DNA of 64,000 nucleotides from an uncultured Nitrososphaeraceae archaeon (lineage in GTDB: Archaea; Thermoproteota; Nitrososphaeria; Nitrososphaerales; Nitrososphaeraceae). Of the stretch, positions 25,191-61,530 are shown one piece after another. Position numbers and translations under genes: made by a program. The stretch spans positions 140,390 to 204,389 of the forward strand of contig CAVSMN010000011.1 in the NCBI GenBank assembly GCA_963729045.1, given 5' to 3'. The notes under the pieces were generated by a model. That model made no database searches. It had not been told where the DNA came from and saw nothing but the letters and a program-made list of their open reading frames with translations. Each line of letters starts with the position of its first letter. Positions within the stretch are counted from its first letter, which is position 1.

Positions 25191-25201
25191 AAGGTATTAA
25201 A

Positions 25202-39473: not shown

Positions 39474-41112
39474 ATGTTTCCAAAAGCTGATGATGTTTCG
39501 ATTTTAGAATGTGTGAAGGACAATGACATTGTAGCAATCTCAGGATTTAACATGGCTACTACTCCCGAATTTTTGATCAATGGACTTTATAAAAGATATC
39601 AAAGAGATGGTCATCCCAAAAATATATTTATAATATCGGACGCTTTGCCAGCAGTTCCAGGCAAAGCTTTAGACTATGTTGCAGAAAATTTATACAAAGA
39701 TCCCAATCAGGATTTCCTAAGAGGTTCTTTGATGCCTTTTTTAGGATTTTCTCCTTGGCTGCAGAAGCTAGTTATAGACAACAGGATTGAGTGTTATGGT
39801 TGGCCAATCGGAATCACGGCCTATTGGTTTAGAGAGATAGCCTCTGGAAGACCAGGACTATTAACTAAAATAGGTTTGAATACATTTTTAGATCCAAGAA
39901 ATGATGATGCCGCCCTTAATGAATTGGGCAAAAGTAATCTATCATGCAAGATTGAATTATTAAGTATTGACAACGAAGACTATCTTTTATATAAAGCACC
40001 AAAACCAAATTGTGCTATAATAAGAACTTCCATTGCTGATGAAATGGGTAATTTGTCAACGCAAGAGGAAGGAATCAGAGGAACTGTTCTTAGTATTGCC
40101 CAGGCTACCAAAGCAAGACCCAATCAAGGAAAAGTAATCTCACAAGTACGCTGGATAACAAAAGCAGGGACGATAAATCCCAGACATGTTGATGTACCTT
40201 TTCCACTTGTTGATCACATTGTAATTTCTCCAATAGAATACCACTGGCAAACAGGATCGATTCCATACGATCCAAGGCTATCCAATCAAATTGTTTCTCC
40301 TATGCATAATAATTTAGACTGCTAGTATTCCTCTAGAGCAACCAAAGGAATATGAAAGAGTAATTGCTAGAAGGGTGGCGCTTGAGTTCATTAATCTCTT
40401 TACCAAAAAACAGGCCCCTGTATTAGTGAATTTAGGAATTGGGATTCCTGCGTTAATTTCATCAGTTGCTGCCGAAGAAAACATTATGAATGTTATAATA
40501 ACAGTTATTGAATCTGGACCATGGGGAGGAGTTGCCTTATCAGGAAATGACTTTGGATTAGCCATGGGGGCATTTGCTCTCTCCACCATGCCAGACATGT
40601 TTTCTAACTTTGAGGGTGGAATCATTGATGCAGCATCTCTAGGTTTTTTACAAATTGATAGATTTGGAAATGTAAATCCCTCGATGCTTCCTAATCGATT
40701 ATTTGGAACCGGTGGATTCCCCGTTATTGCAGGAGGAGTATCCAAGATTTATTTTGCAGGATCATTTATGGGAGGAAAAAACATTATCGATGTAAAAGAA
40801 AACGGAATCAAAATACTACAAGATGGACCAATTACAAAGTTTGTTCAAGATGTTTATAAAATTTCGTTTCAGTTCATATCAAGCATCTAAATATGGACAA
40901 GAGATTATGTATGTTACAGAAAGAGCTGTATTCAAGCTCAGTGGGACCGAATTAGTTTTGGTAGAAACTGCACCGGGTAGTTGACATTGACAAAGATATT
41001 TTAGAGAAAATGGAATTTAAGCCACAAATGGCTCCAGAACATAAAAGAAATGGATAAAAGACTTTTCAGCAAATCAGCAATGAACATAAAAAGAGATTTA
41101 GAAATTTTCTAA
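39474..41112 (+). CDS. Acyl-CoA:acetate/propionate CoA-transferase, YdiF-type (several frameshifts)
   Basis: GRPGLLTKIGLNTFLDPR, VNLGIGIP, catalytic IESG, GTGGF, KFV..V..ISF; a downstream frame has YVTERAVFKL. Confidence 0.85.
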
Positions 41113-41193
41113 AAATATATTACTAATAAAGATGAACTAATCGTTTTTAGTCAATATAGCTAGTTAGATTATGGATAAACAATATTTTTTATA

Positions 41194-41713
41194 TCAAGGC
41201 ACGATTAAAACTGGACATGTAGAGATTTCCGTATATTTCTAGTAACGCTACCAAGTGCTTTATTTTTTGAAACCCCTCCTAAACCTACACTTCCTAGAAC
41301 AATAAGATCTACCTTTTCGTCCTTTACAAATTTGATAATACTGTATGCAACATAACGACTGGAATGACTTCCTTTGAGAATTTTTGTTACTTATACGCAC
41401 TCCAGAATTTCTCGTACTTTGTTTTGAGTTCTTCAAGATTCTTAATCCATTCTGATTCTATTATTTTATTAACTTGATTAGTATATTGATCCAATGAATA
41501 TTTTTAACATCTTTAGTTGGTTTGATCGGGGTCATAATTCCAGGCTGATGAATGTATAGTTGGTAACACATTCAGAATTATTAACTCGTGATTATTTTTA
41601 ACGTTATTCTTAGATGTATTTTCACTCACACCAAATCCGCTCAATAGGTTTATCGAATAATCTAATGCTTTGAGTGAATGTTCAGAACCGTCAACCAATG
41701 CTAAGAGTTTCAT
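41194..41713 (-). CDS. Universal stress protein (frameshifted)
   Basis: MKLLALVDGSEHSLKALDY; later frames give DLIVLGSVGLGG..K..ALGSV and CPVLIVP*. Confidence 0.78.
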
Positions 41714-41964
41714 ATGATATGAATTAAGATGCATGTTTATATCCTTGTTCTTAGAAGCTTCTTCGATACTACTTATCCAAATAATATTGAATTAAGAATA
41801 TCTTGGACTCGTGGTGAACTTAGTATGTACTTGTTTGGATGTTCGTTAACCTTTAGTAGAAATTTTATTATCGAAAATTATTCTGAAAATTAATATAATG
41901 AAAATTATTGTATGCACAATCCAAATTGTATTATATATAACCTAGAGAAGATATATGCATAATC

Positions 41965-42657
41965 TTGAAGTGGACGATAGAAGATTTTGTTTATGGCGCA
42001 ACTGATGGAGCTGTTACCACATTTGCAATAGTTGCAGGTGTAGTGGGAGCATCATTGTCTCCTTCCATTGTTATAATTTTAGGATTTGCAAACCTTTTTG
42101 CCGATGGGTTTGCAATGGCCGTGGGTAATTATTTATCCACAAGATCAAGAATAGAGTATATAGAAAGAGAGCGAAATAGACAAAATAAAGAAGTTCAAGA
42201 CCGACCTGAATACAAAATATCTGAAATAAAAAATATTTATGCAGAAAAGGGCTTTAAAGATGAATTATTAGAAAACCTGACCAAGATTATAGTTTCTAAT
42301 AGAAAGATTTGGGTGGATGTTCTGATGAAAGAGAAAATTGGGATGTCAAATGTAGACGACGAGAATCCAATATTCAAAGCAATTACGACATTTATTGCTT
42401 TCAATATGGTTGGTGTAATCCCACTTCTTCCTTTTATCTTTCTATTTGTCATAAACAACCCTGCAGGTTTTACCACTAATGATATTTTTATTTATTCGAT
42501 TATTTTTACAGCATTAGCTTTTTTTTGTATTGGCTTTATCACGGGAAGAGTTGTTAACAAATCCCCTATAAGATCGGGCCTTATCACATTAATAATAGGT
42601 GGCATTGCAGCACTCGTTTCCTATATGGTAGGAACCTTCTTAAGCTTGTACATATAA
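41965..42657 (+). CDS. VIT1/CCC1 family Fe/Mn transporter
   Basis: [15 protein letters not shown] and [17 protein letters not shown]. Confidence 0.9.
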
Positions 42658-42870
42658 TAACCAGCAAATATTTGTACAAAAATAGCAATTAAGATACATT
42701 CAAGCGGTTTCTCATCCGGATTAAACAGAATAATACGCTTATTTCAAGTAATTATTTTTATCTTTTTATTTGTCTATCTCTCAAAAACAATCAGTAACTT
42801 TTGTTTTGTTAAGTAAAAGAGGATCTACGAACCGACTGGTAGATTTTTCAGTATATAATTATCCTCTTCT

Positions 42871-43385
42871 TTAATGTACTACTAATACAGGACGATTTGA
42901 TATTTCTATCAGATTTCTTGATACACTGCCAAGGGCCTTTATTTTTGAAATACCTCCTAATCCAACATTCCCTACAACTATAAGATCTATTTGTTCTTCT
43001 GTTGAGAATTTTATGATGCTCTCAGCAATTGCCCTACTAGAATGACTTCCTTTAAGCACCTTAGTTCTTATTGAAATATCTGATTCTGCATATCTAGCCT
43101 TGATCTTTGATAATTTATTTATCCATTCAGTCTCCATCATCTGATTCATTTCTTCGATGAATTGAGACAAAGAAACAACCTGATTAGTTTTAATAGATTT
43201 CATAGGTTTTTCAAATCCTAGCGGCATATGAAAATGAGGAAGTACATTTATCAGTATCAGTTCACCACCATACGCTTATTTTTTGATTGATCGGCATTAG
43301 GATTTGTAAGTTTGAGTAGATAAATTGCATATTCCAAAGCCTTTATGGAGGGATCCGATCCATCGATAGGAACTAAGATTTTCAT
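42871..43385 (-). CDS. Universal stress protein (frameshift near 43265)
   Basis: MKILVPIDGSDPSIKALEYA from ATG 43385; DLIVVGNVGLGG...LGSVSR...PVLVVH. Confidence 0.85.
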
Positions 43386-43509
43386 CAAGTCAAATTACTT
43401 ATCATATGGTATATCTTTGTTGATAGATATCGATGTTTAGTCTATAACCTCCAATTAGTTGCGTCAAATTAATTGGCTCAATAACCATCTCATATGATAA
43501 ATATTTGAA

Positions 43510-44574
43510 TCATGGAATTAATACCCCTCTTCCAATTATCTGACCCTCTTTCAATAATTTTATAGCTTCATTAACATCATCCAGTTTAAATTTGGTTATA
43601 TTATTCCTAATTTTACCCTCATTTAATAATTCGATTACCTCTCTTAATTCATTATAATTGCCCCACAAGGATCCAAATATTTTAAATTCATTTAATACAG
43701 TCATTGCTATTGGAATTTTAGCTGCTGTTCCAAACAGACCCACTATTACTACCGAACCTCCTTTTGCTAATATACTGATAGAGTCATAAAATGTCTTGTC
43801 TGTCCCTACGCAATCAATGATGACGTCTAGCATCTTGTTTCCTGTTTCGGCCTTAATTCTGTCAACTAAATTATCAGTGGAATGTAGATTGACTAAATGA
43901 TCCGCGCCGCATTTGCTTGCTAATTCTAACTTATTGTCAGATCTATCCATGGCAAATACTTTAGACCCACCTCCCAAGATTTTTGCATATTGTACCGCAT
44001 ATGAGCCTAAACCACCTATTCCAATTATCCCAATATTTTTTCCTGGTCCAAGCATGTTCTTCACCTTTTTGATTGCTCTGTAGGGTGTCAAACCTGCATC
44101 AGTCAATGGTGCTAAATTCTCAGGTTTAGTTCCCGAAGCACGAACATTCACTAAGAATCTGTATGAAGGAACTAAGACATATTCAGAAAATCCCCCGTCA
44201 AAAGACGATAACCCGGGCCATTTAGCAAAAGCACAAAGTTGTTCATCTCCTGACTTGCAATGTATACACCAACCACAACCCCAGCCCCCAAAAACTGCAA
44301 CTAGGTCACCAGGTTTCATGATATTTTCCGGTACTGATTTACCAACATCTTCAATCCATCCCGCTATCTCGTGTCCTGGTGTCTTTGGTAGATTTAATGG
44401 GATAATATCTTTCCATTCGCCACTAATAAGATGAAGGTCGCTATGGCATAATCCTGAAGCTCCTACCTTTACGAGCACTTCTTCGTCACCTCTTATGACG
44501 GGTTTGGAAATATTATCCAATTCTAAATGTTTGTTATACTCGTGAATTCTAGCTGATCTAATATATCCATCCAT
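43510..44574 (-). CDS. Zn-dependent NAD(P) alcohol dehydrogenase
   Basis: LCHSD, PGHE, structural Zn CGWCIHCKSGDEQLC, PLTDAGLTPY and GIGGLG. Confidence 0.93.
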   Translation of the reverse strand: MDGYIRSARIHEYNKHLELDNISKPVIRGDEEVLVKVGASGLCHSDLHLISGEWKDIIPLNLPKTPGHEIAGWIEDVGKSVPENIMKPGDLVAVFGGWGCGWCIHCKSGDEQLCAFAKWPGLSSFDGGFSEYVLVPSYRFLVNVRASGTKPENLAPLTDAGLTPYRAIKKVKNMLGPGKNIGIIGIGGLGSYAVQYAKILGGGSKVFAMDRSDNKLELASKCGADHLVNLHSTDNLVDRIKAETGNKMLDVIIDCVGTDKTFYDSISILAKGGSVVIVGLFGTAAKIPIAMTVLNEFKIFGSLWGNYNELREVIELLNEGKIRNNITKFKLDDVNEAIKLLKEGQIIGRGVLIP

Positions 44575-44736: not shown

Positions 44737-45237
44737 ATGAGTCTCGACTCTATCGGAATCACAAATTTAATGAATAAAAATATTATAGTTGCTGAACAGA
44801 ATATGAATTTAATCGGCGTATCGAGAATAATGTCTAATAACAATATTGGCTGTGTGGTCATTGTAGACAATCTAGAAACCCGAAAGCCTCTTGGAATTAT
44901 TACCGAAAGAGATATCATTAGAACAATTGGTATGTTACAACCACATCAGATGGTAGTCCCTGTAAGAGAACATATGAGCCATCCTTTAATCACACTTTCA
45001 TCAAACGCAACCGTTTCAGATGCTATGAAATTGATGTATGAAAGAAAAATAAGGAGAGTTATCATTTTAGAGAAGGATAAATTGGCCGGAATTTTAACTG
45101 ATAAAGATATCTTTAGATATTTGGTTGAAAACAAAGACTTGCTCTCTACTGTTATAGCAAGCAATCTTCCAATCCCAGAGAAACAAATGAAAGATGAAAT
45201 TTCACATTTTTGGTTTATTAATACTTTTATTGAATAA
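44737..45237 (+). CDS. CBS-pair protein
   Basis: GIITERDII and GILTDKDIF. Confidence 0.9.
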   Translation: MSLDSIGITNLMNKNIIVAEQNMNLIGVSRIMSNNNIGCVVIVDNLETRKPLGIITERDIIRTIGMLQPHQMVVPVREHMSHPLITLSSNATVSDAMKLMYERKIRRVIILEKDKLAGILTDKDIFRYLVENKDLLSTVIASNLPIPEKQMKDEISHFWFINTFIE

Positions 45238-45352: not shown

Positions 45353-46885
45353 ATGAATCCTTTTTTTACATACTTTGATACACTAACAAACGCCTTTGAT
45401 GCATATACATCAGGTACCAAAATACTGTCAAAATATAATCAAGCATACATCGAGAGTTATTTCAATGTTTTAGCAGATTACCAGAAACAGGCTACCGAAT
45501 ACAAAAATTTTAGAGTTTTTAATAATCTAAGGTACTTGTTACCAACAGAAGAATCATACGGTGAATGGTTAAAAAACACCGATACAAAGTTAAATGATTT
45601 GTTAAAATCAGAAGAATTTTCATCTTCATTATCAAAGTATGTAAACTCCCATCTAGAATTACATCGGTTATTGAAAGCTCAGGGATATCCTATCCAACAC
45701 TTTGAAGATATTTATGAATACATTACAAACAATTGGAACTCATATTATACTAGTAGAAAAGAAAAGGCAATCTCAGAGTTTAAAATATTATATAAAAAAG
45801 ACAATGTAAGACTAATCCGCTTTATAGCCGACTATGATAAGTCTACTGCTAACAATGGCAAAAATCCGCTTTTAATAATTTATGCTCCAATAAATCAATT
45901 TCACATTATGGATATTAATCCTAATAGAAGTGTTGTTAAATCGCTTTTATCCAAAGGAATAGACGTCTACCTGCTTGATTGGGGTTATCCCACCTCAAAA
46001 TATGATAGGCTTTCATTATATGATTACGTAACGTATGTAAGAGACGCGGTACAATTCATTCAAAAACAATCCTCTACATTCATCTCTGTAGATATGCAAG
46101 AAGAAATAAAGGACAAGAATACGAATCAAATGAACTTAGAAATAAAAAATACGAAAAAAAATGATTTGATTGATAAATCTGGTTCAGATACTAGCAGTAG
46201 CAGTAACAGAGTTAATCAAAATTCTACCTATCCCGAGCAGAAAATATCAATCCTGGGATATTGTTGGGGAGGAATTATAGCATTATGTTATGCTTCTTTG
46301 CATAATAATGATATAAGAAATTTAACACTTCTAGCGGTCCCTGTTGATTCGAGCAAAGATCAAACTATTCTCTCAACTTGGGCTAAGAACCTTAATGCGG
46401 ACAAAATAATTGATGAGTTTGGTCATTTAAATGGGCAAGTTCTAGATATAGGATTCATGATGCGTAATCCTATGAGATATACGATAGATAAATATCTTAC
46501 AATGGCTAAAAAATACAACGATAAAGAATTCATGGATATATTCAGATCTGTTGAAGAATGGCTTTATAACACGCCAAACATTCCAGGAAAACTTTTTAAG
46601 GATATCATAAATGAGTGCTACAAGAATAACTCACTTGTGAAAAATAACATGCGAGTAAATAATGAAATTATTAACCTCAAGAAAATAAATGTCCCAATCC
46701 AAACAATTGTAGCTGAAAATGATGATCTTGTGTCTCCAGAGTCAACAATGGAAATCGAGAATTGTGTCTCCAGTAACACAAAAAAAATGATTAAATTTAA
46801 GGGTGGTCATGTTGGATTATGTGTAAGCGGATCTGCGCACAGTCAATTGTGGCCAGAAGTTGCCGATTGGATTTTAATAAACTGA
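45353..46885 (+). CDS. phaC: Class III polyhydroxyalkanoate synthase PhaC with a PhaE-like N-terminal extension
   Basis: PLLIIYAPIN..HIMDI, VYLLDWG, lipase box GYCWGG, catalytic Asp (AENDDLV) and His (GGHVG), LWPEVADW. Confidence 0.85.
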   Translation: MNPFFTYFDTLTNAFDAYTSGTKILSKYNQAYIESYFNVLADYQKQATEYKNFRVFNNLRYLLPTEESYGEWLKNTDTKLNDLLKSEEFSSSLSKYVNSHLELHRLLKAQGYPIQHFEDIYEYITNNWNSYYTSRKEKAISEFKILYKKDNVRLIRFIADYDKSTANNGKNPLLIIYAPINQFHIMDINPNRSVVKSLLSKGIDVYLLDWGYPTSKYDRLSLYDYVTYVRDAVQFIQKQSSTFISVDMQEEIKDKNTNQMNLEIKNTKKNDLIDKSGSDTSSSSNRVNQNSTYPEQKISILGYCWGGIIALCYASLHNNDIRNLTLLAVPVDSSKDQTILSTWAKNLNADKIIDEFGHLNGQVLDIGFMMRNPMRYTIDKYLTMAKKYNDKEFMDIFRSVEEWLYNTPNIPGKLFKDIINECYKNNSLVKNNMRVNNEIINLKKINVPIQTIVAENDDLVSPESTMEIENCVSSNTKKMIKFKGGHVGLCVSGSAHSQLWPEVADWILIN

Positions 46886-47338
46886 TCATATCGATTAACC
46901 GAAGCCGATATATTATCTAAGAACATCAATCCGACACTTAGTAAAGTTAGTATAGTCTTTATTTCTTTATTAGTTCTAAATCAATTAACGAGTTGATACA
47001 TTAGTATGTCCCATCCTTAATGTACCCTATTCAAAATTCAAATGTTATATCTTATTGATTGTATTAATTCTTATCATAGAACTATTCCCCCATGTTATTT
47101 ATTTTGAGCCATATGGCGTGTAATCTTTAAGCCTGACATTTGTCAACAGAATCTGTCTTTATTTAATAATGTAATTGACTATAGAGGGCCGGACAGGCTT
47201 CTTTAGATAAATAAGTTTGGAAATACAATGAACCGATTTTTATGGCTTTATCTTTGTGAAGAATTTCTGATCAATCAATTTTCATCTACATCCTTAACTT
47301 TTTAGTTAATTTTAATATTGGTATCTTCTTTATCATAC

Positions 47339-48031
47339 ATGCATACCTTATTCCGAGACCGCGTAGATGCTGGACATCAACTTGCCACAAGGATAAGATG
47401 GTATCTAAATGAAGAACTAACAAATATTACCGCTTCAAAAAATGAACTGATGGTGTTGGCGATACCACGAGGAGGTATTATTCTTGCAAATATTATAGCG
47501 TCTTATCTTGAATGTGAACTGGATATATTAGTTCTCAAGAAAAATTAGGTACGAATTAAACGAAGAATTGGCAATAGGGGCTGTGATGCCTGATGGATCT
47601 TTCTTTATAAGCGATAAAAATAACTTAGAGTCCTTCCCATCTCTCAAAAGTACTTGGAGCAGGAAATTGAGATCCAAAAGAAGGAAATTACACGTCGATT
47701 AATTGAGTTTAGAGGGACTACTTCTTATGCCAATAAATTAAATGACAAAATTGTGATATTAGTAGATGATGGAATAGCAACAGGAGCTACCATTGTCGCA
47801 GCTGCACAATGGCTTAAAAATAATCATTTTTATAAGAAATTTGTTATTGCAGTTACAGTTGCCCCTGCAGGATCTGAAGTTATTAGAGACTAAGCACTAT
47901 CGCTGATAAAGTAATTATATTATATTCTTCAGAAGAATTTAGTGCGGTAGGGCAATTTTATAGACATCTTTAATCAGGTTAGTGACATAGAAGTAAAAGA
48001 GATAATGAGAACATATCACTATAATATTTGA
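47339..48031 (+). CDS. Phosphoribosyltransferase (Rv0571c/Rv2030c-N-like; several frameshifts)
   Basis: FRDRVDAG, LAIPRGG, EELAIGAV, ILVDDGIATGAT and AVGQFY..F.QVSD.EV. Confidence 0.8.
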
Positions 48032-48852: not shown

Positions 48853-50219
48853 GTGAATTTATACTATGATCTACAAGACGACTCTAAAGACATAGATATT
48901 CTATTAGACAGAATTGGTGAGGCTGAATATGTTTTATTGGGGGAAGCCTCTCATGGGACCTCTGAATTTTATAGATGGCGCACAGAATTATCAAAACGCT
49001 TGATAGCCGATAAGGGTTTCTCATTTATTTCGGTAGAGGGGGATTGGCCGGATTGCTATAAAGTAAATAAATATGTAAAAGGTAATACTAAATCTTACAA
49101 AACTGCAAATGAAGTTCTTCATTCTTTTAACAGATGGCCCACATGGATGTGGGCCAATAAGGAAATGATAGAGTTAGTTGAATGGATGAAGAACTTTAAT
49201 GAAAGCATTATTGATAACACAGATAGTAAAGTCGGTTTTTACGGATTGGATCTTTATAGTTTATGGGAATCGATGGAAGAAATAATATGTTATCTAAAAA
49301 AAGTCAGATCCTTCTATCTTACAAGATGCTATAAGGGCCTACAACTGTTTTGAACCGTATAACAAAGAAGTACAAGCGTATGCACAAGCGACAGCATTTG
49401 TTCCGAAGAATTGTGAAAAGGAAGTTATCGAATTGCTTGTCTCCTTAAGAAATAAGCAAACCGTTATATAGTAACAAACAAGAGAATGAAGAGGATTACT
49501 TTAACGCAGAACAAAATGCAATTACAGTAAAGGATGCCGAAAATTACTATCGAACAATGATAAAAGGGGATGTAAATTCGTGGAATTTAAGAGATATTCA
49601 CATGGTGAATACTTTAGAACGCTTAATTAGTTTTTATAGTAACAGAAACCATGTCAAAAGCCCAAAGGCTATAGTATGGGCCCACAATACCCATATTGGA
49701 GATGCCAGGTTCACGGATATGGCACCCTCCGGTATGATAAATATTGGACAATTAGTAAGAGAAAGAAAAGGCATACAAAAAACAGTCTTGATCGGATTTA
49801 GTACTTATGAAGGCACAGTTATTGCAGCAAATGAATGGGGCGGAAAAATGGAAATAATGAATGTACCTCAAGCAAAGGAAGGAAGTTGGGATCATATATT
49901 ACACAATCTTACTAGCAATTCCAAAAAGGATAGGAAAAACAAATTAATTATTTTTGAGAGAAATAAAGAAATCATAACTATTTTAGAATCTAACAAAGTG
50001 AATTACATTTACGATGAAAATTATGAAAATAGAGGTCAGAGAGCCATAGGAGTTGTCTATAATCCCAAATACGAAAAATATGGTAATTATGTACCCACTA
50101 TACTACCTCTGAGATATGATGTATTGTTATTCGTTGATAGTACTAATGCCCTTTATCCATTACATTTAAAACAAGTTGAGGATAAAGATCTTCCCGATAC
50201 TTTTCCCAGAGGCGAATAG
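48853..50219 (+). CDS. Erythromycin esterase family protein (two frameshifts, near 49303 and 49465)
   Basis: LLGEASHGTSEFY, EGDWPD, RWPTWMWAN, GLDLYSL, SWNLRD.HM, WAHNTHIGDAR and RAIGVVY. Confidence 0.88.
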
Positions 50220-50595: not shown

Positions 50596-51187
50596 ATGTC
50601 ATCTTCGACATCTGATATATCGAAAGATAAATCAAAAGATAAATCTTATAAAGACGACACCGGCCTGAAAAGTCAACCTGAGAATACAATAAATACACCT
50701 AATACATCATATCCGAACCTGTATGATGATTTTTTTGAAACCTATTGGCAAAATATGCAAAATATTATGGGACAAGTTATGGCCGTCATCGATGCTTCCT
50801 TCTATGAGAACAATGACACCATTTGAGTTATTTGATAAAGTGACAGATACAAGACTACCATTATGCGATGTTATTGACAGAGGAGATAAATATGAAATAA
50901 ACTTAGAAGTACCAGGTATTAACAAGGAAAAAATTGATGTAAAGGCAACAAAGAATTCGATTAGTGTTTCAGGATCTCAAACAGAAAAAACCAAAGAAAA
51001 AGGTAAAAAATATGTTTATAGCGAAAGGTCATACAAAGCATTTCATAGACAGATACCATTTGTAGACGAAATTATTCCTTCTCAAATCAGTGCAAAAGTA
51101 ATGGATGGTGTACTAGAGATTAATGCACCAAAGAAAAATCCCACTAAAGTAGATGGAAATGAGGAATTTAAAGTCGATATAAGCTAA
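50596..51187 (+). CDS. Small heat-shock protein Hsp20 (frameshift near 50780)
   Basis: EVPGINKEKIDV, ERSY..FHRQI and AKVMDGVLEINAPK. Confidence 0.85.
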
Positions 51188-51539: not shown

Positions 51540-52110
51540 ATGATGACTCCCACCATACATTGTGCAGATAAATTTATTATGGATCGTGGTGACTCCGTAT
51601 CCTGTACATTGGAAATCCGAAGAATTTTGGTTCCCTATGACGGTTCAGAGTATTCTGAGAATGCATTAGACTATGCGATATACTTGGCAAATACACTTTT
51701 TAAAAGTAATCCCAAAAGACAGAGTATTCGGATAATAATACTTCATGTGATCCAAGGCTTGCCACTTACTAAACCGATTTTAGAAAAAATAGCCTCTTTG
51801 AATGAAGTCAAAAAGCCATCATTAAATAGATGTATATACGAGTATATACGAAGAAATTAGGACATTGATGGAAGAGGATATCAATAAGAAAAAGGAAAAA
51901 TATAGACGCATGGAAGGTATTCGGATTGAATCGGTCATTCTCCATGGTGATCCCTCTAATGAGATTATACAATATGTCAATAATAATATGATTGATATGA
52001 TAATTATTGGAAGTAATGGATTACAAGGATTAGCAAAGATCAAAAGTCTAGGAAGTGTATCTAGAAAGGTATCAGAATCGGTGCAATGTCCCATCGTATT
52101 AATAAGATGA
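51540..52110 (+). CDS. Universal stress protein (frameshift near 51850)
   Basis: RILVPYDGSEYSENALDYA; GDPSNEI...IIGSNG...LGSVSRKV...CPIVLIR. Confidence 0.85.
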
Positions 52111-52349: not shown

Positions 52350-52968
52350 TTACTTAATATATCCTACAATAAAAGACGCAATCAGCTGCAATTCCACCTA
52401 TCATTAAAGTGTGAAGGTCAGATTTTGATGAGATTTACGAGCTATTTTACCCATGATCATACCTATTGCAAAAAAAGAAAATCCAGTGAAAACAGATGAA
52501 TAGACAAAAATGTTTCAAGGCATTTTAGATGTAGAAAAATTTGAAATAATACAAAGATGAAAGGAATAAGAGGCATTATCCCGATCAAATTGAAAACAAC
52601 AAAGGTTGTAATCCCTTTTGATAGTAATATTTCATTCTTTAAATCTTCAGAGCCTATTTTTTCCTTTATCAAGACTTCCATCCAAATCTTTCTTATTGAT
52701 GCGATTACACTTATGACACCCTCAAGTAATTCAGTGTTGAATCCCTTTTCAGAATATCTCTAATTTCTTTTTTCTTCTCTTTCTCTTTTTCTTTCAATAT
52801 ATTCAATTTTTGATTTTGCAGATAGATAATTACCCACCGCCATTACAAACCCTAAGATCAATACAATGGATGGAGAAGACTGATGTCCCGACCATTCCGT
52901 AACTACTGCAAAAGTTGTAACCGATTCATCTATAGATCCATATACAAATCTTTCAATGGATCAATTCA
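52350..52968 (-). pseudogene. Decayed VIT1/CCC1 paralog
   Basis: [24 protein letters not shown] and TFVVFNLIGIMPLIPF match the 41965 gene, but there is an early stop, a deletion of the ANLFADG segment and frameshifts. Confidence 0.75.
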
Positions 52969-53089
52969 TTGTTATTTCATCTGGAATACTATACTGGGCA
53001 TTACCAATTTTATATGAATTAATTCCCACAGACTTGCCTATTTTATTTTTATTTTTGAGTGGTAATTTTATTCGACTTTGAGTACTGAT

Positions 53090-53631: not shown

Positions 53632-56250
53632 TTATTTGGTGGATAAATGTTTGCTCTGGTGATTAATGAATTTGTAAAATATTCTTTTTATTATTTCTGC
53701 AGAAATTGCATAGGCAAAAACAATTAATCCTATGATAATAACATAAGAGATAGGTATTTCTGTTAAACCAAAAATCTTTCCAATAGGTGTATAAGGTAAG
53801 ATCATCACTATGCTGATTGTAATTAGCGTAGTTACTATCAAATAACTTTTTGGCTTGCTTTTAAAAATTGGTCTCGTGGTCCTAAGAACAAGGACGATAA
53901 TACACGCTGAAGAAATTGATTCTATGAACCAAGCAGTTCTAAATTGCTCAATAGACGTGGGATGTAAAAAGTACAGTAGAATCCCAAAAGTAATCAGATC
54001 AAAAAAGGTGCTGAGCAAACCAAAGACGATCATAAACTTGCGAATAAATTTTATATCCCACCGTCGTGGTTTGGCGATAGTCTCAGGATCAACATTGTCA
54101 GTGGATATCGTCATTTCGGGTAAGTCGGTTAATAGATTCATTAGGAGAATCTGTTTAGGTAACAAGGGGAGAAAAGGCAAAAATATTGAGGCTCCTGCCA
54201 TACTAAACATATTACCAAAGTTGGCGCTTGTAGCCATGAATACGTATTTTAGTGTATTTGCAAAAGTCCTCCTTCCCTCAACCACCCCTTCTGCTAAGAC
54301 GGTTAGATCCTTTTCCAAAAGCACAAAATCTGAGGCTTCTTTGGTTACATTAGGAGCGCTGTTTACAGATATTCCTACATCTGCAGCATGTATTGCTGTA
54401 GCATCATTAATGCCATCTCCCAGATATCCCACCACATTTTTTTCAGAAATCCGTAACGCCAAAATTATCTGTTCTTTCTGATTGGGTTCGATCTCAGCAA
54501 ATATATCAATTTCATTAACCCTATTTACTAATGCATCGAAGCTAATTTTATGTATCTCGTGGCCGACAAGAACCTTTGAATTAAACATTCCTATTTGTTT
54601 AGCTAGATTAGCAACCACGTATTTGTTATCACCGCTTATTATCTTAACTGAAATACCTAGGTTTCGAAGCTTGGTTATAGATTCTATGACATCAATCTTA
54701 ATTGGGTCAAAAAAGACAATAAATCCCAAAAAAGTCATTTCAGTTTCATCTTTTTTATCCATCCTCATTTTAGCCGGTCCTAACCTAACATCAACATCTT
54801 TGTAGCATAATCCTAGAATACGTAGTCCTTGATTTCCAAATTCTTCATAACGCTTTATGATTTCCGGCTTTACCTCTGACAAATCCACGATTTTTCCACA
54901 TCTCTCGGCAGTTGAACAAACTTCAAGAATATTGTTGAGAGCTCCTTTAGTTACTATGAATGAATATTTGTTTTTGCCAGTGGACTCGATGAAAGATTTA
55001 TCCTCATATGAAACAAGTACTGAAAGTCTTTTCCTAATGAAATCGTATGGGATTTCATCAATCTTATCATAATCTTTCAGATCAAACTTGTCAGAACAAT
55101 AGTCCTTAATAGCTTTGTCTATAGGATTTGTAAATGCAGTTTCATATGATGAATTAAGATAGGAATATAATAAGACTTTGTCGCTTGTATTACAGTCTAT
55201 ATCAATGGCTGACTTTAGCTGCACATTGCCAATTGTTAATGTTCCAGTTTTATCCGAACATAGGATATTCATGCTTCCGAGATTTTCTAATGCAGCCAGT
55301 CTTTTGACTATTACTTTATCTCTAGCCATTCTTCTTGCACCATGAGATAGATTTACACTTATAATTGCAGGTAACAGTTGAGGTGTGAGTCCGATGGCTA
55401 ATGCCAATGAAAATAAGAACGATTCTAAGATAGACCTGCCGAAATAAACATTGATTAAAACGATAAAAATAACCAACAATAATGTTACTTCCATAAGAAA
55501 GTATCCAAATTTTCTGACTCCATGTTCAAAGTCAGTCTCTGGATTTTTGTATTTTAGACTATTTGATATTTCTCCAAATTCGCTATTGATTCCAGTTTTA
55601 ATTACCAATGCTTTTGCTTTGCCGCTCACCACAAAAGTACCCATAAAAACTGAATTAGTTCTATCCCGTAATGAGGCGTCTTTGGGGAGAATTTTAATAG
55701 ATTTTCCTACAGGATAACTTTCACCAGTCAAAGTTGCCTCATTTACAAAGAGATCATTTGATTCAACTATAATTGAATCAGCAGGGATACTGTCTCCAGC
55801 GGTGAGCGTTATTATATCACCTGGAACAATATCTATAGAAGGTATTGATATATTGATCCCATCTCGTAGAACTAAAATCCTTGCCTGAACAAATTCTAAT
55901 AGTTTATCTACCTCATTGATAGCACCTCTCTCTTGCCAAAATCCTAGAATTCCGCTTATGATTATAATTGTAATGATTAATGCCGCATCTTCCAATTGAC
56001 CTAAGAATAGCGAGAGTAATGAGGTGAAGATAAAAATTAAAATAATTGGACTTTTGAATTGAGAGGCCAATAGGAATAACAAATTAGACTTCTTTTTTGA
56101 TTTAAGAGTATTTTTTCCATATGAAGATAATCGACTTTCTGCATCTTCAGAGGTCAAACCATTTTTTATTGAAGTTTGAAATTCTTGCTCTAATTCGTTT
56201 AAAGGATAACTCCAAAATTCCAATTGCTTGACTTTTTTATCGAAAGTCAT
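53632..56250 (-). CDS. mgtA: Mg2+-translocating P-type ATPase (P3B)
   Basis: TGES, GLTPQLLP, DKTGTLT, KGA, GDGIND and SANFGNMFS. Confidence 0.92.
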   Translation of the reverse strand: MTFDKKVKQLEFWSYPLNELEQEFQTSIKNGLTSEDAESRLSSYGKNTLKSKKKSNLLFLLASQFKSPIILIFIFTSLLSLFLGQLEDAALIITIIIISGILGFWQERGAINEVDKLLEFVQARILVLRDGINISIPSIDIVPGDIITLTAGDSIPADSIIVESNDLFVNEATLTGESYPVGKSIKILPKDASLRDRTNSVFMGTFVVSGKAKALVIKTGINSEFGEISNSLKYKNPETDFEHGVRKFGYFLMEVTLLLVIFIVLINVYFGRSILESFLFSLALAIGLTPQLLPAIISVNLSHGARRMARDKVIVKRLAALENLGSMNILCSDKTGTLTIGNVQLKSAIDIDCNTSDKVLLYSYLNSSYETAFTNPIDKAIKDYCSDKFDLKDYDKIDEIPYDFIRKRLSVLVSYEDKSFIESTGKNKYSFIVTKGALNNILEVCSTAERCGKIVDLSEVKPEIIKRYEEFGNQGLRILGLCYKDVDVRLGPAKMRMDKKDETEMTFLGFIVFFDPIKIDVIESITKLRNLGISVKIISGDNKYVVANLAKQIGMFNSKVLVGHEIHKISFDALVNRVNEIDIFAEIEPNQKEQIILALRISEKNVVGYLGDGINDATAIHAADVGISVNSAPNVTKEASDFVLLEKDLTVLAEGVVEGRRTFANTLKYVFMATSANFGNMFSMAGASIFLPFLPLLPKQILLMNLLTDLPEMTISTDNVDPETIAKPRRWDIKFIRKFMIVFGLLSTFFDLITFGILLYFLHPTSIEQFRTAWFIESISSACIIVLVLRTTRPIFKSKPKSYLIVTTLITISIVMILPYTPIGKIFGLTEIPISYVIIIGLIVFAYAISAEIIKRIFYKFINHQSKHLSTK

Positions 56251-56498: not shown

Positions 56499-57336
56499 TT
56501 ATACGAGATGAATGATTTTTGCAGTTTTCTTTGATGAAGTCACGGTAATAGGCTTATTTCTTGTAATTTTAATTCCTTTGGGATGAATCGTAGTGCCGTA
56601 TAAACGGATATTAGCTTCTCTAATGACTGTCATGTCAATGGTGCTACTAGCCGGGACTGTATAACGGATGGGGATTATTTCTTTATAGTTAACTTTGTCT
56701 TTTAGGCGTCTTACCGCAAAGTTAGGTAAGATGTGACAAATACCTAATTTATTATCATCAAATAATTCCATTGGCTTTTTTTTAGGCTCCCTTATTCGAT
56801 CTAGGTAGGAATAATAGCCACTCGATCCGAATGAAGGTACTTATGATAACTCCATTACCAATAATAAAATCGGTAAATATCGGCTTAATATGTACACTGG
56901 TCTATCTTGCTTGTCCTTTTATTGGTTACAGAAATTGAGTATCTAATACACCCTGAGAAAAGACCACGCTCTAAATAAACATCTGTTAATACACTAATGA
57001 CTGGTAAAGTATCGTATCTTACATCTAACATTCTTTTTATCGGTAACTACATAGTTTCCTTTCACAATACTTCTCAAGGTCTTTGTAAGATTTTGTAAAG
57101 AGATTTCAGCTAATCTGCCTTTACTTCCTAAAATTTCGTCTGTAGGAACGCCAATAAATAACATCGGAATAGACAATTTTTTTCCGTAGTAAGAAAATGT
57201 TCCATCCCCACCAATCACTAATGCTATGTCTGGATCTGTATCTGAAATTTGCAGATCTAAGCGACTTTAATATTTTTTGAATTTTTTCTATTTGAACTTT
57301 CGGCCGAAGGGGATGAACAAATATTTTGAACTTCAA
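56499..57336 (-). pseudogene. NAD kinase-like gene broken into several frames
   Basis: IGGDGT motif and a GVIIST..GSSGY-like segment; multiple frameshifts (decay or sequencing error). Confidence 0.6.
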
Positions 57337-57560: not shown

Positions 57561-58043
57561 TTGAAAGATAATGAGGACCTTAATGGAGAATCAAATGACA
57601 ATAAAGATAAATTAATCGAACATTATGATTCAATTTTAAGAGAAAGCTCCTTATTAACTACTGTTGCTGGAATCCTATTTGGATTTTTATTAAATATTTC
57701 TGTAAATGCCGCTGCCGAGTTTGACGTGAGTAATAAGGTGTTATTGTTGATAGCTTTGTTCTCCATAACTGTTGCTACGCTTCTCTTTAGCATGCCCGTA
57801 ATATACCACCATTTCCAATATCCATATAGAAAATTTGAAAAGTTTCAATTACGCAGTCATCGATTCATCATTTTTGGGATTATCCCATTTTTCATCACTC
57901 TTTACATATGTTTATCGTTGGCTATCCTGATCCTGATTCAAAGTTCGTTTGTTGAGTTTTTTGGTACTATTTACGGCTTTACATTTACATTGGCGTTTAT
58001 CCCATTCATCATTCTTATTGTATTGTATATGAAGAGAAAGTGA
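57561..58043 (+). CDS. 4-TM membrane protein (DUF6328-like)
   Basis: LRE...ILFGFLL and MPVIYH. Confidence 0.7.
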   Translation: MKDNEDLNGESNDNKDKLIEHYDSILRESSLLTTVAGILFGFLLNISVNAAAEFDVSNKVLLLIALFSITVATLLFSMPVIYHHFQYPYRKFEKFQLRSHRFIIFGIIPFFITLYICLSLAILILIQSSFVEFFGTIYGFTFTLAFIPFIILIVLYMKRK

Positions 58044-58286: not shown

Positions 58287-58291
58287 CAAAT

Positions 58292-58957
58292 ATGGACAGA
58301 GACATAACTCCAAGCGATTGGATTAATAGATTTTTCAATACAGGTTTTGGAAGATCCTGGGGAAGAAGAAGAGATCTATTAGATACAAGAGAACTATTTG
58401 CGGATTTCGATGATATTCATGAGGAAATGAATAGAATGTTTGAAGTATTCAACAACCTTTCAAATAATGCACCAAAAGAACTCGTCAGAGAATACGAAAC
58501 AAAAGAAGATGGAAAGGTTAGAGAAGTAGGACCTATAGTATACGGATATTCTATGACCATTGGACCTGACGGTAAACCATATGTAAGAGAATTTGGAAAT
58601 ATCAAATCTGCGCGTAATAACAATGTAAAAAAAATAGGTGGAAAACTGGATCAATCATCACAAATATCTTCAGAAAGAGAACCATTGGTTGACGTTAACA
58701 CTACCGATAAAGAAATCAAAGTTGTAGTTGAAATGCCTGGGATCAAAAAAGTAGACATTAAAATAAATGTTTATGATTCGAGGGTTGAAGTAACAACTTC
58801 AAAGGATGCTCAAAGAAAGTATTACAAAAATATAGAACTTCCAGAACAAGCAGAAATTGAGACCGCAAGATCATCATATAACAATGGCATACTAGAAATA
58901 ACCTTCGACAAAAAGAAAGTTACTAAACCCGCAGGTAGGGAAATCAAAATAGAGTAG
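58292..58957 (+). CDS. hsp20: Archaeal small heat-shock protein Hsp20
   Basis: GPIVYGYSMTIGPDGKPYVREFGN, REPLVDV, EMPG and YNNGILEI. Confidence 0.93.
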   Translation: MDRDITPSDWINRFFNTGFGRSWGRRRDLLDTRELFADFDDIHEEMNRMFEVFNNLSNNAPKELVREYETKEDGKVREVGPIVYGYSMTIGPDGKPYVREFGNIKSARNNNVKKIGGKLDQSSQISSEREPLVDVNTTDKEIKVVVEMPGIKKVDIKINVYDSRVEVTTSKDAQRKYYKNIELPEQAEIETARSSYNNGILEITFDKKKVTKPAGREIKIE

Positions 58958-59409: not shown

Positions 59410-60183
59410 TTGTTTAATTTCCACATGAAAGAAAATATCGAAAGACTTTCTACTATATCCAAAAATATATCAGATAACAAATTTGCTTTTGATCAGATAA
59501 AAAATCTGCCCGAGCCTGTTCAACGATATTTCAAATTTTCTTTAGAAGAAGGACAACATTATATCAGCTACGTAAAATTAAAACATGAGGGACAATTCCG
59601 ACAATATGAAAATCAAAAATGGATGTCAATAAAAGGGGAAGAATACTTTTCTATAGAACAACCCGGATTGATATGGATAGGCAAAATACAATTGTTGCCC
59701 TTCATCTGGATAACAGGGTTAGATGAATATATCGGAGGAAAAGGTAACTTTGAGATAAAGTTGATGTCATATTTCACTATTGCCGATTCCCCTAAAGGTA
59801 GAGAATTGGATAGTGGGGAGCTAATAAGATGGCTCGGTGAAGCACCATTATTTCCCACAGCACTATTACCAAGTAATTATCTCCAATGGCAAGAAATAGA
59901 TTTGAATTCTGCAAGAGCTGTAGTTAACTTCACCGGACTTACGGTTAGTTTAATATTCCATTTTAGTGAAAAGGGAGAGATTACTACCGTGGAAGGTGAT
60001 CGCTATAGATCTGTAAATAACACATACGTAAAAGAGAAATGGGTTGGTCATTATTCAGATTATACCACAATAGAGAACATTATGGTCCCCATGACCATTG
60101 AGGCTGCATGGAATACTCAAGCTGGAAATTTTAGATATGCAAAATTTAAGATAAATGAATTACGGTATGACCATCCCTATTAA
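59410..60183 (+). CDS. DUF6544-like hypothetical protein
   Basis: LPEPVQRYF, GELIRWLGE...PTALL and W..ID..SARA. Confidence 0.72.
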   Translation: MFNFHMKENIERLSTISKNISDNKFAFDQIKNLPEPVQRYFKFSLEEGQHYISYVKLKHEGQFRQYENQKWMSIKGEEYFSIEQPGLIWIGKIQLLPFIWITGLDEYIGGKGNFEIKLMSYFTIADSPKGRELDSGELIRWLGEAPLFPTALLPSNYLQWQEIDLNSARAVVNFTGLTVSLIFHFSEKGEITTVEGDRYRSVNNTYVKEKWVGHYSDYTTIENIMVPMTIEAAWNTQAGNFRYAKFKINELRYDHPY

Positions 60184-60448
60184 ATATTGAGAATATGATT
60201 AATAGCGAGTTACTTCAGTTTGAACAAGCAAGGTTAAATAAATGAATTTGTGATAATACAGCGATTAATATTTGTATTGAACTCATCCAAATTCCCCATT
60301 TGAATCTAATTATGGAATTTAAGTGGCTGACAACAAAATCATTAGAGATATTTTTTAGGTCATAAAAAATGATATCCCCATATTCAGATTTTCAATATTT
60401 AGACTTGAATCTGGAATTACAATCACTATTGAAGATGAAAAACGAAAA

Positions 60449-60829
60449 ATGATTATATTTGGTCAAATTACCTCAATTGTGGACAAAAAGGAGCTGAAAA
60501 TTAGACATGGGATCCTTGAAATAAGAAAAGATGTTGAACGTTTTGACGTAACATGGATTCCGGATAATATGAACAGAGGTAATAACAACTGTTGTGACTA
60601 TGAACAGATTATGAAAATGATAAACGAAACTTATCCGGATTGTATCACTATTTACCCAGAGGGAATAAATGCCGTAACATTAATTCGACTTTTGTATGAT
60701 ACATATGGAAATTATTCATTAATCATAAGAGAAGTACAGAGAGGTGGAGAATTTGTGGAAAAGTATGCATCTTATGAACTAATTTTAAACCTGAAACCAG
60801 AAGTTAGAAGAAAAACAGACGCAAGATGA
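60449..60829 (+). CDS. Hypothetical protein
   Basis: 126-aa ATG ORF with no recognised motif. Confidence 0.55.
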   Translation: MIIFGQITSIVDKKELKIRHGILEIRKDVERFDVTWIPDNMNRGNNNCCDYEQIMKMINETYPDCITIYPEGINAVTLIRLLYDTYGNYSLIIREVQRGGEFVEKYASYELILNLKPEVRRKTDAR

Positions 60830-61008
60830 ACTATAATAAACTAACTAATATCAATATATGCGAAAAGAAAGAATGTCATAAAAATCAAAACAAATCTTTA
60901 CGATGAAATATTTATTTCTGATTGGTTATCATTTACTTTCTGATGCAAAATTTGGGATATACTGAGTGTATGCTCTTCATAGCATGCGGAACTAATAAAA
61001 ATCCTGTG

Positions 61009-61530
61009 CTAATAGTCTGAAATAGATTCTTTATTATCCCCATATTTTCCTGTAGCCTCGTTTACTTTAATTCGATACACCACAATATCAAAAATTTCCT
61101 TATTATTACTATGTAAAAATGGCGATAAAAATGAGTGCTGAAAAGCAAAATTTTTGATACCTAGATTATCAGGACCAGAGGTTTCAGTCGGAGAGGATTT
61201 TCTATCTAAATTAGACATAATTGATTTCATCAGAATTTCCAATCCTTTATTAGCTTCATCTCCTTTTAGTTCCTCAAAGGTTCCATAAACAATCACACTT
61301 TTCCAATTGCTCATGTCTTTCATCCAATCAATTTCAAAACAGACATTTGGATTATTTCGCATCATTTGGATTTTCAATCCATCCTTTGTATGCCCATAAA
61401 TGTATCCATTATCATAAGCATAAGTGATAGGAACAACATAGACTTTGTTACCATCGAAACATCCTACTCTGCCTATTAATTCTGATTTTAAAAGATCATC
61501 AATTTGACTCTTATCCAAATCGCCCCACAT
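61009..61530 (-). CDS. Pyridoxamine 5'-phosphate oxidase-like (NimA-type) flavin-binding protein
   Basis: IGRVGC...YVVPITY, G.KIQMMRNNPNVCFEID and WKSVIVYG. Confidence 0.88.
   Translation of the reverse strand: MWGDLDKSQIDDLLKSELIGRVGCFDGNKVYVVPITYAYDNGYIYGHTKDGLKIQMMRNNPNVCFEIDWMKDMSNWKSVIVYGTFEELKGDEANKGLEILMKSIMSNLDRKSSPTETSGPDNLGIKNFAFQHSFLSPFLHSNNKEIFDIVVYRIKVNEATGKYGDNKESISDY

Follow-up and report, generated by a model that had tools for sequence, protein, structure and literature searches.

Apparent decay of a stress-gene neighbourhood in a Nitrosocosmicus-like archaeon and its likeness to the bacterial DosR and lxa clusters

In Mycobacterium tuberculosis, the operon Rv2028c-Rv2031c encodes a universal stress protein (USP), PfkB, the protein Rv2030c, in which a phosphoribosyltransferase (PRTase) is fused to an erythromycin-esterase-like domain, and the alpha-crystallin HspX, as described in PMC4410610. 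The lxa locus of Burkholderia cenocepacia, whose induction at low oxygen has been measured, carries six USPs, an alpha-crystallin, a Zn-dependent alcohol dehydrogenase (Zn-ADH), a class I polyhydroxyalkanoate (PHA) synthase, a cation ATPase and an anion transporter, and its authors propose PHA as an electron sink (PMC3721108). Families overlapping such bacterial growth-arrest or low-oxygen clusters, namely small heat-shock proteins (sHSPs), ATP-binding-type USPs, a CBS pair, a PRTase with an erythromycin-esterase-like protein, a PNPOx-like protein, a cation P-type ATPase, a Zn-ADH and a PHA synthase, lie together at positions 39474-61530 of the DNA analysed here, a stretch of 64,000 nucleotides (the window) from contig CAVSMN010000011.1 of an uncultured Nitrososphaeraceae archaeon. 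This likeness in families to the DosR and lxa clusters is real, and nine of the 19 genes counted there carry frameshifts, in-frame stops or both. The interval is probably an accessory, partly decayed stress-survival neighbourhood in a Nitrosocosmicus-like ammonia-oxidising archaeon (AOA), downstream of a tRNA-Ala and a split integrase, and the cluster looks here like a relic, not a working dormancy switch.

Families were called by Pfam and NCBIfam profiles on open reading frames (ORFs), and gene breaks from the ORF listing, three-frame translation and alignment to relatives. The genes of the interval are as follows.

39474..40984, plus strand: family-I CoA-transferase (FadX/YdiF-like), pseudogene in three frames (39474-40325, 40375-40890 and 40823-40984)
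41232..41734, minus strand: USP1, a pseudogene in which three-frame translation shows two or more in-frame stops and two or more frame changes
41965..42657, plus strand: VIT1a, Fe/Mn transporter of the VIT1/CCC1 family, intact (Pfam VIT1, 1.4e-63, profile 2-214 of 214)
42871..43394, minus strand: USP2, with one frameshift between the N-terminal third (about 43394-43278) and a 118-aa C-terminal ORF
43510..44574, minus strand: Zn-ADH, intact (Pfam ADH_N and ADH_zinc_N; top NCBIfam match AdhP, below cut-off)
44737..45237, plus strand: stand-alone CBS-pair protein, intact (Pfam CBS, two stretches)
45353..46885, plus strand: PhaC-like PHA synthase of thaumarchaeal type, 510 aa, intact (TIGR01836, 283.7 bits against a cut-off of 365.3)
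47318..48022, plus strand: PRTase pseudogene, interrupted by stops and several changes of frame (two pieces match Pfam Pribosyltran)
48853..50219, plus strand: erythromycin-esterase-family pseudogene, its frame shifted twice by +1, near 49305 and near 49462
50596..51187, plus strand: Hsp20a (Pfam HSP20), separated from its ancestral start (50596) by a frameshift near 50766
51540..52110, plus strand: USP3, with one frameshift near 51825 (two ORFs, each in its own frame, cover 2-51 and 67-141 of the Pfam Usp profile)
52431..52969, minus strand: VIT1b, a paralogue of VIT1a that has decayed through deletions and in-frame stops (tblastn with VIT1a, 48% identity over 161 aa)
53632..56250, minus strand: magnesium-translocating P-type ATPase (MgtA type), 872 aa, intact (TIGR01524)
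56499..57336, minus strand: NAD kinase, pseudogene over three frames (weak Pfam/NCBIfam NAD_kinase match on a 74-aa piece)
57561..58043, plus strand: DUF6328 membrane protein, intact (Pfam DUF6328, 6.4e-9)
58292..58957, plus strand: Hsp20b, archaeal-type sHSP, intact (NF041800, 154.9 bits against a cut-off of 140; Pfam HSP20)
59410..60183, plus strand: DUF6920/DUF6544 protein, intact (Pfam, 3.9e-76; nearest Atlas clusters mostly bacterial)
60449..60829, plus strand: 126-aa ORF without Pfam or NCBIfam match, maybe not a real gene
61009..61530, minus strand: PNPOx-like flavoprotein (Pyridox_ox_2, Nim-related), intact (Pfam, 2.5e-19; PDB matches 2hq9 and 3u0i)

Every family named in the initial annotation, in which the interval had been taken for an archaeal mirror of the DosR dormancy regulon, was recovered in its place by Pfam and NCBIfam. 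What had escaped it were the broken genes, the MgtA type of the ATPase and the local duplications behind part of the family enrichment.

The broken set comprises the genes for the CoA-transferase, USP1, USP2, USP3, PRTase, esterase, Hsp20a, VIT1b and NAD kinase. In the first of these, Pfam CoA_trans matches the first two pieces, and the NCBIfam FadX profile is covered from 10 to 262 and from 295 to 442 (of 523) on separate ORFs. A 277-aa PRTase from another Nitrososphaeraceae locus (L004) aligns over 47318-48022 only through stops and frame changes. As for the esterase-family gene, its breaks were seen by alignment to intact relatives of 450-456 aa: positions 1-101 and 188-358 of the Pfam profile are found on separate ORFs, and the middle part lies in the third frame. 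The 118-aa ORF of USP2 holds only positions 59-141 of the Usp profile, the N-terminus sitting in another frame, while USP1 and VIT1b also bear in-frame stops and deletions, VIT1b giving a weak Pfam VIT1 match on one fragment; when USP and VIT1 paralogues from within the window are aligned, the matches change frame or run through stops. Concerning Hsp20a, frame +1 encodes at 50710-50766 the counterpart of residues 42-60 of its nearest representative (P0361, 202 aa), and frame +2 encodes at 50765-51181 that of residues 63-201; a 154-aa ORF is left (50723-51187), with the whole alpha-crystallin domain kept. The 90-aa ORF at 56499-56771, which has no family match, is likely the C-terminal piece of the NAD kinase, judging from its position and a reading of its translation.

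Further debris was seen at 34367-34453, a 29-aa remnant which is 66% identical to the end of this 90-aa ORF. In the 830-bp stretch between the PRTase and esterase genes (48022-48853), the sole ORF is one of 56 aa on the minus strand (48257-48427), with neither family match nor detectable homology; a dienelactone-hydrolase or DUF892 remnant was sought there by tblastn with bacterial proteins, and none was found at E <= 1e-3. Upstream of VIT1b lies a short Zn-ribbon-like ORF (about 53223-53350, minus strand), whose second Cys pair seems mutated. For the 126-aa ORF, identification as a phage protein was dropped, the single Atlas lead being weak (0.85).

The breaks look like pseudogenisation of an accessory region, since the inspected junctions do not lie within long homopolymers and the neighbouring genes are free of lesions. 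By our tally, about 7.2 kb of broken genes hold at least 20 lesions, against none in about 10.6 kb of intact cluster genes, and in four intact genes (those for MgtA, PhaC, the ADH and an adjacent DASS transporter) the reading frame stays unshifted across 19 homopolymer runs of length six or above. Also, no Pfam-evident split gene was found in about 25 kb of housekeeping genes at the left of the window (transketolase, transaldolase, HtrA, AAA/VWA). It could be argued that the cluster is in fact intact and the frameshifts are sequencing or assembly errors, given that the assembly is a draft, the window's PhaC being recorded on a contig of 204,389 bp, and that five genes, including that of a multicopper oxidase just upstream, carry a single one-base shift; yet the concentration of lesions in nine genes next to lesion-free ones rich in homopolymers, the position of the junctions, and the multiple stops and deletions in USP1, VIT1b, PRTase and NAD kinase make this very improbable.

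The assignment of the intact members to subfamilies qualifies the likeness to DosR. The ATPase scores 738.9 bits against a cut-off of 610.75 with TIGR01524 (profile 24-862 of 867), which places it with the MgtA/MgtB magnesium P-type (P3B) ATPases, and 392, 336 and 247 bits with the Ca-type models TIGR01522, TIGR01116 and TIGR01517, all below their cut-offs and below the MgtA model. Its relatives include Nitrososphaeraceae proteins named magnesium-translocating ATPase (60-70% identical) and others at 97-99%. The protein had been likened to CtpF in the initial annotation, a comparison which, since the MgtA model is passed and the Ca-type models are failed, holds at the superfamily level only. 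PhaC has relatives of 505-508 aa which are 71-80% identical, followed by a Nitrosocosmicus protein (54%) and the PhaC of N. gargensis (41%); it is class-III-like although below the TIGR01836 cut-off, has a G-Y-C-W-G lipase-box-like motif and groups with thaumarchaeal proteins named PhaC. No family match to PhaE was found by the profile scan in any ORF neighbouring PhaC. The CBS protein aligns end-to-end with Rv2626c in the PDB at E 8.4e-9, archaeal CBS pairs being better, down to 1.9e-15.

As for the erythromycin-esterase-family protein, the EreB model of macrolide esterases gives 28 bits against a cut-off of 750, and the nearest solved relatives are Bacillus chains named 'succinoglycan biosynthesis protein'; the 'erythromycin' of the family name is not evidence of antibiotic hydrolysis. 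A fragment of it is 75-78% identical to proteins of 450-456 aa, one of them from Nitrosocosmicus sp. T. A C-terminal glycine-rich region, G-x2-G...G-S/T, marks ATP binding in PF00582 proteins. The USPs are of the MJ0577-like ATP-binding type, with Pfam Usp matches on USP2 and USP3 and glycine-rich C-terminal stretches in the translations.

The abundance of some families has a local origin. The C-terminal part of USP1, a gene associated with the direct repeat D1, is 71% identical to USP2 over 52 aa, and its N-terminal piece matches the N-termini of USP2 and USP3. Furthermore, a convergent VIT1/USP pair occurs twice in opposite orientation (41965-43394 and 51540-52969), the identities being 48% for VIT1a/VIT1b and 37-41% for USP2/USP3. 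This arrangement suggests an old segmental duplication of a USP-VIT1 unit, with USP1 flanking VIT1a, and with local duplication at work the family counts are not independent events.

The most specific element shared with DosR is the pair of PRTase (PF00156) and erythromycin-esterase-like (PF05139) genes, which lie in the window on the same strand, as in an Rv2030c-type module, and are both pseudogenes. A genome scan with the esterase alignment returned at least 80 loci, the 80 listed being four from Nitrososphaeraceae, four haloarchaeal and 72 bacterial. PRTases were taken from first-round phmmer matches; an iterated home-made PRTase profile drifted onto esterase genes and was discarded. A PRTase was found within 3 kb of the esterase gene, or overlapping it, in 27 of the 80 listed loci, and these span bacteria, haloarchaea (L041 and L051) and one Nitrososphaeraceae metagenome-assembled genome (L004). 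The PRTase-esterase pair is a conserved, widespread module.

Other stress families are found less often near the esterase gene: among the listed loci, a USP occurs in 12, Hsp20 in 8, a PNPOx-like gene in 4 and a P-type ATPase in 6, with at least one of the four in 19 and at least two in 9, mainly Chitinophagaceae, 7 of the 9 being from Bacteroidota. In the Bacteroidota loci L007, L011, L012 and L020, the esterase gene and a DUF892-PRTase operon are divergent, and in the first three the operon has a dienelactone hydrolase (DLH) gene between DUF892 and PRTase; two Hsp20 genes, USPs, a P-type ATPase, a PNPOx-like gene, the S30AE hibernation factor, glycogen phosphorylase and phosphoketolase with acetate kinase are spread among the four, and L011 has a receiver-cNMP-Crp regulator with a PAS kinase. 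The PNPOx-like protein of the window is 37% identical over 163 aa to that encoded beside the PRTase in L020. Elsewhere, an Amycolatopsis locus (L045) has the order tandem USP - PEBP - PRTase - esterase, and one haloarchaeal esterase locus carries a USP and Hsp20. The wider stress-family association is real but remains a minority pattern, seen in few independent lineages and without a random-gene control.

The Bacteroidota/Chitinophagaceae loci (the four above and L025) have a DosR/lxa-like neighbourhood, in which tandem USPs and PEBP, BON and baeRF3 genes were also noted. The haloarchaeal esterase loci are L040, L041, L051 and L072; L041 also contains a GAF histidine kinase, and in L040 a nitroreductase lies near the esterase gene.

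Among Nitrososphaeraceae, the three other loci (L001, L002 and L003) have no cluster genes around the esterase, except a multicopper oxidase in L002; they may be paralogous to the window locus, since Nitrosocosmicus-labelled esterases fall in several subclades. The co-clustering across archaeal genomes for which the initial annotation had proposed a test is seen for the PRTase-esterase pair. A quick esterase tree (LG+G4, midpoint root), which shows neither donor nor direction, places the Nitrososphaerota in one clade (SH-aLRT 100) nested among bacteria, with the window copy in a Nitrosocosmicus subclade (97), the Gemmatimonadota as a weakly supported sister (82) and the haloarchaea in a separate clade (99). 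This topology is compatible with separate transfers between bacteria and archaea. Given the single Nitrososphaerota clade and the place of the window copy inside the Nitrosocosmicus subclade, the esterase would be a long-standing resident of the lineage.

That abundant families such as USP, Hsp20 and CBS, helped by local duplications, merely mimic a theme in a flexible, decaying region is an explanation to which the duplicate nature of USP1/USP2 and of the VIT1/USP pair lends weight, together with the bare surroundings of the esterase in L001-L003 (the L002 oxidase excepted), the rarity of loci with two or more stress families and the lack of a shared motif (see below). The pairing of PRTase and esterase is, on the other hand, clearly non-random, being always within 3 kb in the 27 loci, and further families again accompany it in Chitinophagaceae, Amycolatopsis (USP and PEBP) and one haloarchaeal locus (USP and Hsp20). 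The same families also meet in the M. tuberculosis operon Rv2028c-Rv2031c (PMC4410610), and L001-L003 may be paralogous loci. We consider chance co-location rather unlikely.

In the scanned cluster ORFs of at least 50 aa, Pfam found no HTH, receiver or kinase domain, as the initial annotation had already noted in seeing no sensor kinase or regulator inside the cluster; the scanned ORFs of the window showed no Response_reg, GerE, GAF or HATPase_c domain of the kind that DosR and DosS/DosT would carry. Nor was a cNMP_binding or Crp domain found, which an Anr-like regulator would have. An HxlR-type gene, at 36635-37054, is the regulator closest to the cluster. The 16 upstream regions were searched for k-mers of 10-12 nt with one mismatch allowed, against 30 dinucleotide-type shuffles, and the best k-mers for a cluster-wide operator stayed within the shuffle range (k = 10, 8 regions vs. 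6-9; k = 11, 6 vs. 5-6; k = 12, 4 vs. 4-6). The sequence GGGACTNNAGTCCC, which we take to be the DosR-box core, has, with up to three mismatches, 5 matches against 8.1 expected, none of them in the cluster upstream regions. The motif discovery on upstream regions that the initial annotation had proposed brought out, as its one striking element, an exact 14-mer, CAAATATYGCAAAT (CAAAT-N4-CAAAT), whose two matches, the only ones in the 64 kb, precede the two Hsp20 genes:

50515..50528, plus strand: 14-nt motif CAAATATCGCAAAT, 68 nt ahead of the ancestral Hsp20a start
58146-58159: 14-nt twin CAAATATTGCAAAT, 133 nt before Hsp20b

The CAAAT-N4-CAAAT element suggests a candidate sHSP-specific operator, by which the sHSP genes would have their own control. 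Another 14-nt element, TGAAATGATTTWAY, upstream of the CoA-transferase and esterase genes, was rejected: it has 3 matches where 0.93 would be expected, a number that 6 out of 100 shuffles reach as well. Before the same two pseudogenes stand copies of a 21-nt element (39313-39333 and 48760-48780, 90% identical), not clearly above chance, with a weaker copy upstream of PhaC. No leader RNA was found before MgtA in the Rfam scan, in which a tRNA was the sole match.

These results bear on the view taken in the initial annotation, namely a functional low-oxygen/nitric oxide (NO) dormancy island, co-induced as a unit, with PHA synthesis as electron and carbon sink. The overlap of families with the DosR regulon, on which that view was built, and with the lxa locus is real (PMC4410610, PMC3721108), in Chitinophagaceae the PRTase/esterase pair is again surrounded by these families, and PhaC, Hsp20b, CBS, PNPOx, ADH and MgtA are intact. 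It is opposed by the disruption of nine of the 19 genes, among them the three USPs, PRTase, esterase, NAD kinase and CoA-transferase, by the lack of a regulator, DosR-box core or shared upstream motif, and by the MgtA type of the ATPase, and no PhaE lies beside PhaC. Nitroreductase, NarK2/NarX, PfkB, NrdZ and ferredoxin are further families of the DosR regulon, and none of the five was found in the Pfam scan. Nothing was found that ties the cluster genes to oxygen or NO. With nine pseudogenes, including all USPs and the PRTase/esterase pair, the set cannot work as an intact regulon; a functional hypoxia/NO island in this genome is unlikely, and the co-induced island with its PHA sink we hold to be improbable. 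The idea of PHA in place of triacylglycerol already has a bacterial precedent in the lxa locus (PMC3721108).

The surroundings of the cluster raise the question of a mobile element. Three features matter here.

25202-25277, plus strand: tRNA-Ala(CGC) (ARAGORN and Rfam)
25590-26153 and 26119-26628, plus strand: tyrosine integrase, split in two frames (Pfam Phage_integr_3)
37749..39276, plus strand: multicopper oxidase of two domains and a C-terminal cupredoxin, with a frameshift near 38250, located immediately upstream of the cluster (Pfam)

With a tyrosine integrase beside its tRNA target, as in integrated elements, the segment 25202..26628 is possibly the left end of an old integrated element; such an element would take in the cluster, and its right end could lie beyond base 64000. 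Only accessory content follows to the right of the integrase, namely unknown ORFs, a glucose/sorbosone dehydrogenase bearing a cupredoxin domain, a set of arsenic-related genes, the oxidase, to which the L002 oxidase aligns in two frames, and the stress cluster. After the tRNA-Ala, at least three exact ATGTTAACAT palindromes are arrayed, with more GTTAACA-like copies in 25330-25540. Directly downstream of the glucose/sorbosone dehydrogenase ORF, the region 29773-31480 includes a cupredoxin stretch paralogous to that of the oxidase (39% over 119 aa). The arsenic-related set (34619-37054) consists of minus-strand genes for a MIP-family channel, a low-molecular-weight phosphatase/ArsC-like protein and an ArsM-type SAM methyltransferase, followed by the divergent HxlR-type regulator. 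In the housekeeping part, a 563-aa ORF (2763-4454, minus strand) joins the N-terminal half of transketolase (37-289) to ribulose-phosphate 3-epimerase (307-511) and adjoins the C-terminal half of transketolase and the transaldolase gene.

Thaumarchaeal integrated elements often carry UspA (16 elements), CBS, Zn-ribbon and multicopper-oxidase genes, and one of 98 kb is described in a Nitrosocosmicus genome (Krupovic et al. 2019, PMC6563490). The genes of the window might, accordingly, be the cargo of a large, degenerate cryptic element integrated at tRNA-Ala, their co-location reflecting gene sampling by a mobile element and not a shared programme. The tRNA-Ala followed directly by the palindrome array and the split integrase, the accessory content with its many pseudogenes, and a described cargo of UspA, CBS, Zn-ribbon and multicopper-oxidase genes in elements of up to 98 kb (PMC6563490) all speak for it. 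However, no att copy in the window defines a right end, and no replication, conjugation or restriction genes were found in the window part of the putative element; the GC content, about 33% in the window, differs little between the left part and the cluster side; the esterase gene is old in Nitrososphaeraceae and no recent import; and a term search for 'erythromycin' in the supplementary gene tables of PMC6563490 gave no match. Cargo of this kind is possible rather than probable, and an accessory, decaying stress-survival neighbourhood remains the reading we prefer.

Several observations weigh against that preference. USP2, USP3, Hsp20a and the oxidase, each with a single frameshift, could be assembly errors or be expressed from internal starts. 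Loci with at least two stress families are a minority of the 80 listed and, seven of the nine being from Bacteroidota, amount to few independent observations; they make up 6 of the 27 loci with a PRTase and 3 of the 53 without, a weak contrast (Fisher p = 0.055, uncorrected for kinship). The USP and Hsp20 profiles used for these counts were home-made and may miss distant members, and ORF calling was poor in high-GC loci. On the genomic side, neither a second tRNA 3' end (up to three mismatches) nor a 16-mer of 25191-25300 (up to two) recurs in the window as an att site. Finally, that the whole cluster was once intact and is conserved would follow from relatives of single genes only.

If the set did once act together, the following roles may be proposed. 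The sHSPs would ancestrally have held unfolding proteins, USP and CBS proteins would bind adenine nucleotides and signal the energy state, MgtA and VIT1 would tune Mg and Fe/Mn, and the CoA-transferase, ADH and PhaC would route carbon and reductant into or out of PHA. Every gene apparently has its own promoter region, a candidate operator being common to the two sHSP genes only. At most, Hsp20b, an Hsp20a that may be truncated at its N-terminus, MgtA, VIT1a, CBS, PhaC, ADH and PNPOx might still be acting. A bolder proposal is that AOA of the Nitrosocosmicus lineage ancestrally built an archaeal counterpart of the DosR/lxa-type growth-arrest clusters, partly from bacterial genes (as the nesting of the esterase clade among bacterial sequences would suggest, the tree showing no donor or direction), which would be intact and co-induced in relatives and decaying here; we regard it as doubtful. 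Relatives with full-length esterase genes of 450-456 aa are the candidates for such an intact module.

The closest named relatives of the window proteins are from Candidatus Nitrosocosmicus and other Nitrososphaeraceae, and it is from this kinship that the host is called an ammonia oxidiser, no amo gene being present in the 64-kb window. Soil AOA must outlast anoxic and starved spells, by means which are poorly known. Were an intact, co-induced version to exist in relatives, it would provide concrete candidate genes for an AOA survival state, would extend to archaea a gene association known from actinobacteria and Burkholderia, and would make this genome a natural loss-of-function comparison for the survival of soil AOA under oxygen or energy limitation. 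What the window does show is that these families are associated in Nitrososphaeraceae too, and that this genome is losing the set. The main value of the locus is as a pointer to intact versions in cultured Nitrosocosmicus. The PRTase/esterase pair, which with sHSP and USP genes forms the core of the family likeness and recurs beside stress genes in two domains, is a worthwhile biochemical target, and gene lists drawn from raw ORFs need checks of gene integrity. In agreement with the initial annotation, no such cluster in AOA was found in the literature searched, although subscription journals and supplements might contain one.

Compared with the DosR regulon, the window has in common USP, alpha-crystallin/Hsp20, CBS-pair, PRTase and esterase, PNPOx-like, P-type ATPase and Zn-ADH genes (PMC4410610, PMC5069765). 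Six shared families are present at the Pfam level, with six of those genes broken and the ATPase of another subfamily. The window differs in its archaeal host, in having PRTase and esterase as separate genes, both broken, in its single-domain and uniformly broken USPs, in an ATPase of MgtA and not Ca type, in a CBS protein closer to archaeal CBS pairs than to Rv2626c, and in the absence of DosR/DosS/DosT and of the DosR-box core. Its PHA synthase, in place of the triacylglycerol synthase of DosR, is an analogue and not a homologue. The OsdR region of Streptomyces coelicolor likewise holds USPs, Zn-dependent dehydrogenases and a PNPOx gene, there around a dormancy-type regulator; unlike the window, it has a DevR-like response regulator, a GC-rich palindromic box, and nitrate reductase and nitroreductase genes (PMC5069765).

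With the cryptic elements of thaumarchaea, the window shares an integrase beside a tRNA and a cargo of UspA, CBS-domain, Zn-ribbon, multicopper-oxidase, cation-transporter and dehydrogenase genes (PMC6563490). It differs from them in that no att repeats and no replication module were found, and by term search none of the elements listed in PMC6563490 targets tRNA-Ala. The five Bacteroidota loci (L007, L011, L012, L020 and L025) resemble it in having the esterase beside a PRTase, with Hsp20 (often two), USP, Pyridox_ox_2 and P-type ATPase genes within 10 kb, the ATPase of L012 being 43% identical to that of the window over 860 aa. In contrast to the window, their genes are intact and include DUF892-DLH-PRTase operons divergent from the esterase, tandem-domain USPs, S30AE, glycogen phosphorylase and phosphoketolase with acetate kinase.

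As for the lxa locus, which besides the DosR regulon is the described system closest to the window, its 50 genes come with dedicated Anr-like CRP regulators, with two-component systems and with a common lxa motif, and no such regulators, systems or motif were found in the window, and its acetate kinase, nitroreductase, class II ribonucleotide reductase and ribokinase are all absent there; the PHA synthases also differ, class I in lxa and class-III-like in the window (PMC3721108). The core content is nevertheless of the lxa type: several USPs, an alpha-crystallin, a PHA synthase, a Zn-ADH and a cation ATPase lie within 22 kb, the USPs and one Hsp20 being disrupted. The lxa locus is thus the closest precedent for PHA in place of triacylglycerol, and the archaeal cluster adds a new case to a known type of stress-gene cluster.

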